Shown here one piece after another: positions 1,228-5,489 of a DNA stretch of 64,000 bases; positions within the stretch are counted from its first letter, which is position 1, and the number at the start of each line of letters is the position of its first letter. The stretch is from an uncultured cyanobacterium (lineage in GTDB: Bacteria; Cyanobacteriota; Cyanobacteriia; Cyanobacteriales; Microcystaceae), in the NCBI GenBank assembly GCA_963807635.1, contig CAWEDJ010000028.1, positions 1-64,000 of the forward strand. The letters run 5' to 3'. Under the pieces are notes generated by a model. The model made no database searches, was not told where the DNA came from, and saw only the letters and a list, made by a program, of their open reading frames with translations. A program made the position numbers and the translations under genes.

Positions 1228-1634
1228 ATAACGATTCTTGTCGGTAGGAATTGAGGATTGAAACGTTTCATCAGTTAAAATTAATTTACCGTTACTAAGA
1301 TAACAATTCTCTCGAATGGGAATTGAGGGTTGAAACCATCTTATAATTTAATAATTGATGAATTGATGGGTCAAAAAATAGACTCATCACGACTCTTTTT
1401 AAAAGAGTTGAGGATTGAAACATTCTAAGGTATTCTAAATTTTTCCCAGTTCCCTAAAAAGGGAATTGAGGGTTGAAACGGGCTACTGGCCCCCTATTGG
1501 TTAGGGGCTGATAGTCAACGGTTTTCTCGACAAGAGACTGAGGATTGAAACGGGCTTCTAGCTCCGATTTATTTGGAGCTAATCGTAAGGTAATTTTACT
1601 GCGATTTTTCCGAGGAGAAATTGAGGGTTGAAAC
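1228..1634 (+). CRISPR. Degenerate CRISPR-like array: 6 repeats of 36-37 nt and 5 spacers of 35, 49, 21, 35 and 46 nt; no cas1/cas2/cas6/effector gene in the window
   Basis: Repeats at 1228-1264, 1300-1336, 1386-1421, 1443-1479, 1515-1551 and 1598-1634. All end TGAGG(A/G)TTGAAAC and carry an internal hairpin. Orientation inferred from the canonical 3' (A/G)TTGAAAC. Confidence 0.7.
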
Positions 1635-2456: not shown

Positions 2457-4693
2457 TTAATGCCACCACTGTTTTTCTCCTTCACGTTCTAGGTGATAGA
2501 GTCCTTTTAAAGTTTTATAGCCAATTTTATCTGACGAATAAATCGGCATAGGTATTCCTGCTTCTTTGTATGATCCATGATGTAATAAGCATAATTTTAT
2601 TACTGCTTCAAGTACATCATCTAAAGGAGGAATTTCCCCATCTTGGGCAATAGTTACCCGAATAGGTTGAACTAAACCAGTAAGAGGCTTTGTTGTTGCT
2701 ATTGTTGCCTCCCTTTCAGAATGCTTAAAAATCAGATATTGAGAAGGTTTTTGTAATGTTGTTTGACTTTTTTTTCCTTCTTGATCCAATAATGTTATCT
2801 GATTAAATAAACGACAAGCTCCTGTCTTAGTAATTTCTACAAAAATAAATTTAGCTCCAATTGCCTCTACTCTTTCCTTTAAAAAACTGATTTCTTTTCC
2901 TTTAAATCTACCATCACGAAAAATCAAGACTTTTTTTTCAAATAAATCGTCAAAAGGTAAAAGTTTTCGGATAACTTCAATCGGGATTTCTTCACCTTCA
3001 ATCCTACTATCAGCTAATTTATACTTGATAAATTCTCCACTTGAGCCATAAATTCTAACGCAAGCGCAAGCATTTTTTGTTCCTCCAGTTTTACGTTTTC
3101 GTTCATGAGCAACATCTAAACCAATAAAATAATCTGCTACTTTGAGCGGCTCAGCAAGAATAAAAGGAAGATTTCCTAATTTGGATAAAATTCCTAAAAT
3201 TATATTATTAATGATATAGTTATTAACTAAATTTTCTTCTTTTATCATTTGACTTGCTATTCCTCTTGGGATTAATTGATGAGAGGTATGATAATAATAA
3301 CTTCCTCTTTCAGTATGATTAAAGCCTTATCTCCGATAGGGAGAATAGTAATAACTAAGTCAGGTTCTAAGGCAACAATTCTTTCAACTTCTTTTTCTAT
3401 TAAAACAGCATCTTTCTCAGACATACTTCCTTCAATTTCTAAAGGAATTTTTTCAATAAATTTTATCGGAAAATTTAAATCTTTTAATTGTAATTCTATT
3501 CTTCTTAAAAATGGACTAGCTTGACTCTTTCCCAATTTTAATACACACACATTTAAATGGCTAGATAAATCTTTAAAGTCTTTATAGCGACGGTAAACTC
3601 CACCTTTTTTTAAACCTTCCTTGATTTGTGATCTGGGAACAATGGTACTGTTTCCGAAACAAAGTTTCACGCTATCTTGATTAAAATTAGAAACATAAAA
3701 ATTTTGATGATAATCTTGAGAGCTAACATATTCTTTTTCAAGCTTTATTTCCCAGGCACTAAGAGTTTTTGAAGAATTTTCATAAGCTTTAGTTAATAAT
3801 TTTTGCCATTCATCAAGACTAATTTTTGTTTTGCTACGATAAAATTCATAATCAATTCCCAAGTATTTAGAATTATTCTCATTAATAACAATGCTCAAAC
3901 CATCAAGAACATAATGAGCATAACTTTCCTTACCCCAATGTGTAGTTTTTACATTAACAATAGGATCAGAAATCTCACTATCTTCTATGATCTTACGAGT
4001 TCTAGGATGTAAATCAGGATAACTTAATAATCTAGCTTTTTGTTCATCATTACAATATTCAACAATTTCTTCAATGATGCCATTATTTCCTGAAATAAAT
4101 CTATTTTCAACATTTAAATCTTTAAGAATATCATTATTTTTTTGATTTTTTAGCCAATAATCTTTCAATGTTCCTGGATATTTGCCAGAAGTTCGCCAGT
4201 CAAAAATTAAAGCGGCCTTATTTGAGAATGTTTCTGGTGAAATTTTTAAATATCGATAAATACTTATTCGTTCAGCTATCTGCTTATCAATATCAAGAAA
4301 GACTTTCCATGAATCTTGGGAAACTTCACGACGCAAAATATGAGATGCTAATTGAGAAAGAATGTGTGATTCAGGATGTTCTACTTTATCTAATTTCTGT
4401 ATTGTAAGATTTAGAAATCCTTCTTTTATTTGTAAATTAATAGCTATTTCGTTGAGTTGTTCTTGCCACTCTTTTATTTTTTTTCCTTGATCATTTGGAT
4501 GGCGAATTAGCCAAAATTTTCCTTGACAATAAACAGCTTTGGTTAATTGATTCTTTTTAGAAAATTCGTAAGCGATTTGATTACCTTGCTCAACCGATAA
4601 ATTAGAAACAACGTTCATATAACCAAGACGTGCTTTCTCAGTTATTTTAATTGCAATCATATTACTTGTATAACTATTTAATTTATTAGACAT
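2457..4693 (-). CDS. ago: Long prokaryotic Argonaute (~745 aa), split in two ORFs (3272-4693 and 2457-3248) by a 1-nt frameshift near 3325
   Basis: PIWI tetrad GLDV / EGEE / FRDG / SSDK (DEDD). Shifting frame after GDK gives ...GSYYYHTSHQLIPRGIASQMI...ILGILSKLG (MID region), running into the second ORF. C-terminus EGEKQWWH resembles cyanobacterial pAgos. Confidence 0.9.
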
Positions 4694-5489
4694 ACTCTAA
4701 GTAATCCTCACAAATAGAATTAAATTGACAGTATTGACAACCTTTGCCTGGAGTACCAGGAAAAATATTCTCAAAAAGCCTAGGATCATCACGATATAGA
4801 GTTATTTGTTCCTGATGCTTAATTGCAATTTTAGCTAATTTGATTTTAACAAAATCTAATTCCTCCTTTGTTGCTGAGTATATTTCTGATTGTTTCTTAG
4901 ATTCTAAGTTATAAAAAGAAGCAATAGCTTTTTTATCTTCATATAAATATTGACTAGCCAATAAATAAATAAAAGCTTGCCTCAAATCATAACTATTATC
5001 ATTTTTTCCCGTTTTGAAATCTATAATATGTATTGTTTCTGCATTTTCTTCAATCACACAATCAAATTTGAAAAAAAGCTTATAATAAATACCATTTGCA
5101 AAAACTGAAATACTGGCAGGTTTATCTCCTTCTGATTCCAAATAAATGACTTTTTTATTCTTTAAAAAAGGGTAATCTAAATAATTTATTAGTACTTGGA
5201 AAACTCTCTCTTGAATTTCTTTAGTTTCTTGGTAAAGATTTAGAAATTCAGAAGCAATAACATTAATTCCAGACTGGGTAAGATGCTGTGGATTATGATA
5301 TAAGTAGTAAATTCCTCGTTGGGCTAATTTACCAATTTTTTGAGGAGTGGTATCTTGTTTGTTGAGAGAACCAATATTGGGAACTTCTTTACTTATTATT
5401 CTCGAATAACCACGTTTTTTGTGACAATGAGAATCTTCAAGTCCCTGTTGAGGAACAAATTCTCTCCATAATGAATAAGAAGACCACAT
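4686..5489 (-). CDS. Cas4-like PD-(D/E)XK nuclease, ACE1-like (Argonaute-associated)
   Basis: FDC...IIDFKTG nuclease motif; N-terminal Cys (HCHKK) plus C-terminal CQYCQFNSIC, the split Fe-S ligand pattern of Cas4/AddB; overlaps the pAgo start by 8 nt. Confidence 0.85.
   Translation of the reverse strand: MWSSYSLWREFVPQQGLEDSHCHKKRGYSRIISKEVPNIGSLNKQDTTPQKIGKLAQRGIYYLYHNPQHLTQSGINVIASEFLNLYQETKEIQERVFQVLINYLDYPFLKNKKVIYLESEGDKPASISVFANGIYYKLFFKFDCVIEENAETIHIIDFKTGKNDNSYDLRQAFIYLLASQYLYEDKKAIASFYNLESKKQSEIYSATKEELDFVKIKLAKIAIKHQEQITLYRDDPRLFENIFPGTPGKGCQYCQFNSICEDYLEYV

Follow-up and report, generated by a model that had tools for sequence, protein, structure and literature searches.

The regulatory crRNA-like RNAs described so far are single units of intact immune systems, or weapons that phages direct against them. 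The closest to the locus studied here are the type I-C crlRNAs of CRISIS (Shu et al., bioRxiv 10.1101/2024.12.27.630466), which are guides with an 11-nt handle, a 16-bp match and a non-repeat 3' hairpin. On our reading, they resemble our locus in a pseudo-repeat cut by Cas5c to leave the 11-nt handle, in a short match with position 6 free, in a 3' hairpin for which a repeat is optional and in the repression of promoters by Cascade. As described there, a single unit lies between cas3 and cas5c of a complete immune system and, with a TTC/TTA PAM, targets an adjacent defence gene, whereas here five or six tandem units follow cas7c in a locus without cas3 or cas1, the candidate sites carry an STY or NTY flank, and the candidate targets are unlinked and mostly not defence genes. 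Among the marks of a crlRNA, hairpin, handle and seed-limited conservation are found here; a linked target and a complete immune locus are not.

Other relatives differ in further respects. The CreR/CreA RNAs and mini-arrays (bioRxiv 10.1101/2023.03.10.532045 and 10.1101/2023.03.03.530964), have degenerate repeats, conserved stem-loops and seed-only spacer conservation as this locus has, and Cas3 is dispensable for their repression. They target the cas promoter or a linked toxin or cargo gene, of which we find none here, and they accompany an immune array that the present array has replaced. The Cracr arrays of phages (bioRxiv 10.1101/2024.10.29.618823) likewise place several crRNA-like units in one array-like transcript and use Cas proteins as repressors. 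They are borne by phages or plasmids and hijack host Cas proteins to silence cas or creT, whereas our array is chromosomal with Cascade genes of its own, and searches of phages, plasmids and IMG/VR did not recover it. Haloferax volcanii s479 likewise resembles a crRNA and is connected with host genes outside defence, namely those of zinc transport, but it is a single, Cas6-matured RNA of a complete type I-B system that binds an mRNA (PMC8155600). Finally, canonical minimal type I-C systems of cyanobacteria (among them G086, L035, G294 and G218) share the repeat family, a Cas7 that is 75-78% identical and the lack of cas1 beside the operon. They differ in having a cas3-like gene, a leader of about 250 nt, uniform repeats and diverse spacers; of cas3, cas1, leader, uniform repeats and variable spacers, none was found at our locus. 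Our searches of open-access papers and preprints returned no description of a Cas3-less type I-C system with a multi-guide array directed at unlinked host genes.

Here, we analyse a window of 64,000 nucleotides from an uncultured cyanobacterium of the Microcystaceae (contig CAWEDJ010000028.1, assembly GCA_963807635.1; this genome is called G000 below). With a little more than even confidence, we favour the reading that, in the cas-bearing relatives of this genome, the frozen array found here supplies five crRNA-like guides with which a Cascade lacking its nuclease represses host genes, several of them cell-surface genes. If true, this would be natural multiplex CRISPRi serving ordinary physiology through a chromosomal Cascade without nuclease or adaptation, and it would provide a directly testable case for the long-argued regulation of host surface genes by CRISPR-Cas. 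Even if the targets were wrong, a conserved Cas3-less type I-C system with fixed guides would still need explaining. The locus also suggests a rule for finding similar systems, namely repeats that differ yet stay paired, handles and seeds without variation, and no cas3; array finders that require near-identical repeats are likely to miss such arrays. In addition, it would offer a compact, recombination-resistant array design.

Array anatomy and repeat structure

Positions 1228-1634 hold six repeats of 36-37 nt and five spacers, all on the + strand, with every stem and tail where the first-pass annotation had put it. Each repeat consists of a stem followed by an 11-nt handle: repeat 1 (1228-1264; stem 1232-1253, handle 1254-1264, with the predicted Cas5c cut after 1253), repeat 2 (1300-1336; stem 1304-1325, handle 1326-1336), repeat 3 (1385-1421; stem 1390-1410, handle 1411-1421), repeat 4 (1443-1479; stem 1447-1468, handle 1469-1479), repeat 5 (1515-1551; stem 1519-1540, handle 1541-1551) and repeat 6 (1598-1634; stem 1602-1623, handle 1624-1634). 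The stem of unit 3 has at most 9 bp and a loop of 3 nt. The sequence 3' of repeat 6 is of low complexity and includes a conserved T-run, possibly a transcript end or a sixth guide.

The spacers are of uneven length, and three of them have hairpins of their own. S1 (1265-1299) has 35 nt, the first 12 of which are invariant in four orthologues; S2 (1337-1384) has 48 nt with an internal hairpin at about 1364-1389; S3 (1422-1442) is short, with 21 nt; S4 (1480-1514) has 35 nt and a hairpin at about 1481-1516 whose loop varies among orthologues; and S5 (1552-1597) has 46 nt and a hairpin at 1559-1581. The internal hairpins overlap part of the S4 and S5 seeds, which differ from each other at positions 6 and 9 only.

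The repeats end in the constant TGAGGRTTGAAAC tail, which occurs six times in the window, always on the + strand and within 1252-1634 (expected 0.27; matched in 0 of 100 shuffles). Exact copies are confined to these six places in the whole genome of 4.03 Mb, where 11 further matches with one mismatch lie scattered. The tail had been described as a near-invariant 13-nt element; it comprises the last two bases of the stem and the 11-nt handle.

When all units are placed in register, pairing holds at 47 of the 48 stem positions, which bears out the observation of six differing but paired stems ahead of a fixed tail. When the same number of stem bases was substituted at random in a canonical relative's repeat, 29-39 pairs were left, and the excess of pairing over random decay persists (P <= 0.0002) even with transitions only. 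A covariation check was made on 23 mutually related repeats (six from the window, 13 from orthologous arrays and four canonical ones): 91.8% of cells pair and 21 cells are changed on both sides, values that none of 500 shuffles matched and that compare with 36-62% pairing in slid controls. Two-sided changes are confined to four of the eight stem pairs. Because the rows are related and only these four pairs change on both sides, much of the apparent covariation amounts to tolerance of G-U pairs; the suggestion that selection maintains the pairing is supported. The segment 1200-1680 folds with z = -3.7, and a search of the window against Rfam returned no matches.

Type I-C identity and predicted processing

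The first-pass annotation had noted that the stem ends 11 nt from the repeat end, instead of the 8 nt usual for Cas6, and had suggested an atypical processing partner. The offset is instead the one at which Cas5c of type I-C systems ordinarily cuts, and relatives carry cas5c-cas8c-cas7c directly upstream of the array. The standard Cas5c substrate is a stem with an 11-nt 3' overhang, recognized through the base of the stem and the overhang while the loop is ignored (PMC8524198). All six units present a stem-loop with such an overhang, and this mode of recognition accounts for the 11-nt offset as well as for the conservation of structure over sequence. In the same-genus relative G065, cas5c, cas8c and cas7c all score above their NCBIfam cut-offs, and Cas5c of the array-bearing clade retains the residues that are invariant in canonical members. 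A tracrRNA had also been considered, and no exact anti-repeat was found outside the array in the whole genome; neither was any match to the RAMP family found in G000.

The repeats belong to a 37-nt family with a CAATT...AATTG stem base and a AGGATTGAAAC tail that is common to the canonical relatives, among which repeats vary between species in the same way. The array almost certainly derives from a type I-C CRISPR. Comparisons of repeats and arrays also support the first-pass view that it is CRISPR-derived, not actively acquiring and read from the + strand.

Orthologous arrays and the Cas3-less operon

A search for the tandem tail pattern matched three of 89 family genomes: G000, G065 and G086. 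The array of G065 has the same five spacers and is 96% identical over 1218-1827 of the window; that of G086 has 17 uniform repeats of the same repeat family. Two metagenome contigs, L033 and L034, carry the same array 3' of cas7, so that the same five spacers recur in four assemblies. Linked to the array are all three cas genes in G065 and L034 and cas7 in L033, with 31-77 nt between cas7c and repeat 1 in the three loci (31 nt in G065), and the leader of about 250 nt seen in canonical relatives is gone throughout this array-bearing clade. In a further genome, G068, the cas5c-cas8c-cas7c genes were found and the array is absent from the assembly. The chromosomal neighbours of the locus are hoxH, ftsH or recG. 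In both L034 and L032 (from G068), hoxH lies directly 5' of cas5c with no cas3 between them. Searches for cas3 in G065 (99% complete), G068 (84%) and G000 gave no match, and neither did searches for cas1 in these three genomes. By comparison, cas3 is present in canonical G086 (by HMM), and in 11 of 11 further canonical loci an ORF of 630-700 aa with a Cas3-like start can be recognized by eye. The Cas7 proteins of the array-bearing loci form a clade with support of 100/99, and its sister group consists of the cas3-bearing, uniform-array systems of G086 and L035. Among the listed matches of 30 Cas7 loci from 401 genomes of the order, G065 is the only one with the array.

Sequencing runs extend this distribution. 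Fourteen DNA runs contain 37-47% of the array's words, and the whole array with the same spacers was recovered in all four DNA runs examined; three of these arrays lie behind a cas7 end and one has the cas-less junction of the window. Contigs from RNA libraries span the array in four of four runs examined, and one of them links the cas7 end to repeat 1; their strand and ends are unreadable and DNA carry-over is uncontrolled. Such contigs in different studies end at 1265/1266 and 1429/1430, positions that need not be RNA ends.

The copy in this genome and its neighbourhood

The window begins with an IS630-family element (1-1171, + strand; DDE_3 transposase ORF 44-1156) at the contig start, with at least five near-identical copies in the genome, which occupies the position that cas5c-cas8c-cas7c has in relatives. 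It is followed by what is left, in 47 nt, of a short repeat dispersed in the genome (1170-1217, +), and the junction at 1217/1218 replaces the 3' end of the relatives' cas7. Downstream, a trailer (1635-1827, +) is common to G065, with homology ending at a GCGATCGC octamer, and diverges by 16-29% in the two more distant orthologues. Neither cas5c, cas8c and cas7c nor hoxH was found in G000, which is 93.7% complete; its array copy is therefore probably an orphan, and it is nearly as intact as its orthologues though the cas genes are missing. The lack of a hoxH match in this genome leaves room for the operon and the hydrogenase genes having been lost, or left unassembled, together.

Crude ORF calls place a PemK-like gene, a broken Argonaute gene, a PD-(D/E)XK nuclease gene and recG downstream of the array. 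The PemK/MazF-like toxin gene (1830-2171, - strand) directly follows the trailer; G065 has other small toxin-like and HNH-like genes at this position, and because these small genes differ, the interval between array and recG is best regarded as a variable cassette. The Argonaute gene (2457-5489, -) is split between two frames by a break near 3270-3300, one piece covering 3272-4693 and the other, with PIWI, 2457-3248. It sits behind the nuclease gene and resembles the cyanobacterial pAgo-ACE1 pair (PMC12094033), either broken or mis-assembled. The Argonaute and Cas4-like neighbours were considered as partners of the array and rejected, being absent beside it in G065, L033 and L034.

Selection on seeds, handles and Cascade

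The first-pass annotation overlooked the strongest conservation of the locus, which lies in the first 12 nucleotides of the spacers, and the absence of cas3 and cas1. When four orthologous arrays are compared in all six pairs, not one of 59 sites within spacer positions 1-12 is changed in any pair; one column with a gap in the C-run of S4 is left out of the 59, and by eye L033 differs at position 12 of S4. Over the same pairs there is at most one change in 66 handle positions, 4-6 in 104 stem positions, 2-11 in 25-27 loop positions and 5-37 in 128-130 trailer positions. Even if the seeds changed as fast as the trailer, finding none of the 59 sites altered would have a probability of 3e-5. Conservation falls off after position 12 in every spacer, and position 6 is invariant in the four orthologues, which Cascade pairing does not need. 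The synonymous sites of cas7 differ by 34-45% over the same lineage, and cas5c, cas8c and cas7c are intact and under purifying selection (dN/dS 0.04-0.09, pS 0.18-0.45). A function under selection in this lineage is very probable.

Candidate host targets

An exact seed match was defined as identity at spacer positions 1-5 and 7-11. G000 has 36 such matches, six with a GTY and seven with an STY flank (background 5.7%, P 0.004). Three GTY-flanked sites lie 42-102 nt upstream of genes, where 0.12 would be expected from shuffled seeds (P 0.0007) or 0.30 from real intergenic 11-mers (P 0.010), P values that precede correction for the post-hoc choice among at least eight PAMs. The S3 sites among them are upstream of a PEP-CTERM metalloprotease gene and of an rfbF-type gene that heads a sugar-nucleotide cluster. 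The third belongs to S2: flanked by GTC, it precedes a GT4 glycosyltransferase gene by 83 nt, in G065 and G068 as well as in G000.

S3 has sites upstream of PEP-CTERM genes, the rfbF-type nucleotidyltransferase gene, an HTH-AAA_35 gene and priA; given the last two, the target class is not purely one of surface genes. Without any PAM imposed, S3 matches two of ten PEP-CTERM upstream regions of G000 (P 0.0002-0.001), the functional class of the targets having been named after the matches were seen. In G065 and G068 together, 10 of 22 exact S3 matches are upstream-intergenic, and an STY flank accompanies seven of these ten and none of the 12 coding matches (P 0.0007). In three genomes without this Cas7 (G066, G067 and G069), which are also the more distant ones, 2 of 22 matches are upstream and none has an STY flank, and upstream of their PEP-CTERM orthologues the motif is missing (best matches with 3-4 mismatches). 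A second PEP-CTERM promoter of G065, beside the exosortase gene, has a GTC flank where cas-less G000 has GCC, and a third has GTT and one mismatch in both G065 and G068. In G068, one PEP-CTERM site is changed at the PAM-proximal base (GTC to CTC) and another carries a seed mismatch; a fourth PEP-CTERM match is flanked by CAA.

For S4, three of five matches in G065 have a GTY flank. One, flanked by GTC, lies inside wzc; G065 and G068 keep this site intact, and in G000, G066, G067 and G069 it is broken. Another, flanked by GTT, falls at the 5' end of a G065 gene for a predicted outer-membrane beta-barrel protein. The S1 sites in relatives are upstream of a Ser/Thr kinase gene (TTY) and at the junction of amt and a TPR gene (GTT). 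In G065, the PEP-CTERM site beside the exosortase gene, the wzc and beta-barrel sites of S4 and the S1 site at amt were picked up by applying GTN-flanked patterns to relatives. Between G065 and G068, orthologous sites differ at 1 of 90 seed bases, 3 of 9 position-6 bases and 162 of 972 flanking bases; four of these nine sites, which are not independent, were found by pattern in both genomes, and the five found without that bias have 1 of 50 seed bases changed (P 0.003).

Over 133 nt, the cas5c upstream region itself shares 77% identity with the upstream region of a Wzz/Wzc gene, a likeness that the cas5c promoter of canonical G086 lacks. Tandem TTCACAAAAA-type boxes are common to the cas5c and Wzz/Wzc-gene promoters (L034:5480-5660 and L257:1097-1229), with two more single copies in G000 (C52 and C99), and are likely to be sites of a regulator. 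Autoregulation through the cas promoter was considered and rejected, since no S1-S5 seed run longer than 9 nt occurs in L026, L032, L033 or L034.

The flanking motif

Partial promoter matches flanked by the putative PAM show enrichment in the case of S3 and S2, a suggestive result in that of S4 and a negative one in those of S1 and S5, the PAM, [G/C]T[C/T], having been read off the candidate sites themselves. In an out-of-sample test, S1 matches showed no STY enrichment (3/23 versus 4/31), and the S1 site at amt contains a start codon and is retained in Cascade-less genomes. S4 alone is not significant (4/7 versus 1/8, P 0.12); pooling S1, S3 and S4 gives STY flanks at 14/52 versus 5/61 (P 0.011), a result driven by S3. 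For S5, no exact site with a GT flank was found in G000, G065 or G068, and its 10-nt matches, seven in all, occur in G066, G067 and G069 only, all antisense to coding sequence. Counts of GTN-flanked seeds do not divide the genomes by presence of Cascade (7 in G065, 4 in G068, 5 in G066, 4 in G067 and 1 in G069), and reversed-pattern controls are of similar size.

The described type I-C PAMs are TTC and TTA (bioRxiv 2024.12.27.630466), and TTN-flanked targets in G000 are at shuffle level. Spacers of canonical relatives were also searched for protospacers. Five canonical arrays against plasmids gave repeat matches only; further searches covered one canonical array against phages, three against relatives' genomes and two single spacers against IMG/VR. 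Among 175 canonical spacers, one independent protospacer was found, flanked by GTT and matching at 30 of 35 positions. GTN is reported as the PAM of cyanobacterial type I-D adaptation (PMC5896167), and that it was borrowed from there would be no more than a guess; cas1 is present elsewhere in the genome in four of five canonical hosts, and none was found in G086.

Proposed mechanism and alternatives

In the cas-bearing relatives, the array would be co-transcribed with the cas operon from the cas promoter, and Cas5c would cleave below each stem to release RNAs of 72, 85, 58, 72 and 83 nt. If only stem base and handle are read, upper stems and loops could drift and yet stay paired. Divergence of the repeats is to be expected because Cas1-Cas2 no longer copy them, and it might also shield the fixed guides from recombinational loss. 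Cascade would then pair about 11-14 nt of guide with DNA beside [G/C]T[C/T], or possibly any NTY, the short spacers or internal hairpins perhaps keeping R-loops short as in the described I-C crlRNAs. Without Cas3, it would block RNA polymerase instead of cutting, either at -10 regions or as a roadblock within wzc, where polymerase would reach the PAM side first, in line with the polarity rule for such roadblocks. The candidate targets are the PEP-CTERM promoters, the GT4 glycosyltransferase gene, rfbF, wzc, the outer-membrane protein gene, priA, the kinase gene and the HTH-AAA gene. Because the cas promoter resembles that of the Wzz/Wzc gene, the system may form a feedback arm of a surface-polysaccharide programme. 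The parts of this proposal differ in strength. That the guides bind DNA is probable; that they serve a host-gene regulon is evenly balanced, as, approximately, is the view of a domesticated, nuclease-less Cascade acting as a multiplex transcriptional repressor. The complete scenario, in which loss of Cas3, Cas1 and the leader and capture of an exopolysaccharide promoter yielded a five-guide, RNA-programmed transcription factor that tunes the sheath and colony form of a freshwater cyanobacterium via unlinked PEP-CTERM and capsule genes, is more tentative and falls somewhat short of even.

The most serious alternative, unlikely in our estimate, retains a nuclease-less Cascade with fixed guides but aims it, as a defence by silencing, at something unsampled, for instance conserved promoters of phages, plasmids or transposons, the host matches being partly due to chance. 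System anatomy and seed conservation would be the same, S5 and largely S1 are without convincing host targets, and the locus borders variable toxin and defence genes in G000 and G065. However, searches of 50,697 phage and 72,556 plasmid records gave nothing better than E 0.6, though BLAST is blind to 11-nt matches, and the S1 pattern has two matches in IMG/VR, flanked by AGT and CTC and with no sign of cyanophage origin. Moreover, the host matches of S3 are enriched, and fast-evolving invaders would not normally keep seeds constant over a dS of 0.4-0.7.

Only marginally less probable, and unlikely too, is a role without DNA targeting, in which Cas5c releases small RNAs, or the array is a structured RNA, that act as antisense RNA, Cas7 sponge or toxin/antitoxin RNA, and the S3 motif is a protein-binding promoter box. 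In its favour, the crRNA-like H. volcanii RNA s479 binds an mRNA (PMC8155600). Three spacers form hairpins, that of S4 covering its own seed; the S1 seed can pair with S2; and position 6 of the spacers is conserved. The S3 sites overlap -10-like TAnnnT hexamers, the -10 consensus, and position 6 is the centre of their half-palindromic motif, ATTCT-N-AGGTA; their conservation could accordingly reflect constraint on a promoter or on transcription-factor binding. Against this reading, Cas8c, the PAM-reading subunit, is intact with a dN/dS of 0.06-0.08, conservation drops past position 12 in all spacers, one class of flank stands beside three different seeds, and the S3 sites, present in either orientation, are missing upstream of the PEP-CTERM orthologues of G066, G067 and G069. 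For S4, in addition, pairing with the wzc mRNA is impossible, since its match is to the coding strand of that gene.

It is improbable that the array is a decaying relic of an immune array, whose hairpins persist because drift is biased towards transitions or because stability of the cas-operon mRNA is weakly selected. In G000, cas5c, cas8c, cas7c, cas1 and RAMP genes were not found and an IS630 element lies upstream, and many stem changes are transitions to G-U; decay may describe the G000 copy since its loss of the cas genes, but not the element. For the lineage it is disfavoured by 0 of 59 seed changes against synonymous divergence of 34-45%, by 47 of 48 intact pairs and by the same five spacers in four assemblies and four of four DNA runs examined.

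CRISPR-associated transposons typically have a Cas3-less Cascade and divergent repeats, and homing guides of such an element at a tRNA gene, or a CreR acting at the cas promoter, could leave a similar locus. In L033 and L034, a gene resembling tRNA-Phe can be made out by eye some 350 nt downstream, and three canonical relatives have single repeats after cas7. We nevertheless hold known guides of these kinds to be very improbable, as no transposase-like or tns ORF was seen by eye around the operon in L034, L032 or L026, the operon is fixed in position beside hoxH, and no run of S1-S5 exceeds 9 nt in these loci, cas promoter included. Least probable of all is processing by an unusual Cas6, another RNase or a tracrRNA-dependent route, since the departure from the 8 nt of Cas6 is the 11-nt signature of Cas5c, whose cognate gene adjoins the array in relatives with canonically invariant residues kept, and no anti-repeat was found.

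Related repeat units elsewhere

Several loci related to the array by repeat family were encountered during the searches. In three canonical cyanobacterial I-C loci, single or double repeats lie between cas7 and the leader, with conserved sequence 3' of them (L076:4263, L077:12324 and L078:12129-12198). It is possible that such post-cas7 repeats are regulatory units and the source of the cassette; no targets of theirs were found within 16-17 kb of the three loci. The complete genome of G086 (L024/L025) combines its canonical 17-repeat I-C array and cas3 with no cas1 that we could find, and a lone repeat tail lies just 5' of cas3 in its divergent cas5c-cas3 gap (L025:7150-7190). In L043 and L067, a cas7 that is stop-interrupted or truncated stands beside one or two repeats, as in decaying canonical I-C loci. 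Plasmids of Calothrix and Planktothrix carry single repeat-like units of the same I-C family (matches H30-H36); these may be solitary repeats or serve as RNA anti-CRISPRs. The second array of G000, on contig C102, belongs to Cas12k and was set aside as unrelated; at L001:6009-8640, this locus comprises cas12k, an upstream restriction gene with a MerR-like head, and an array of five repeats.
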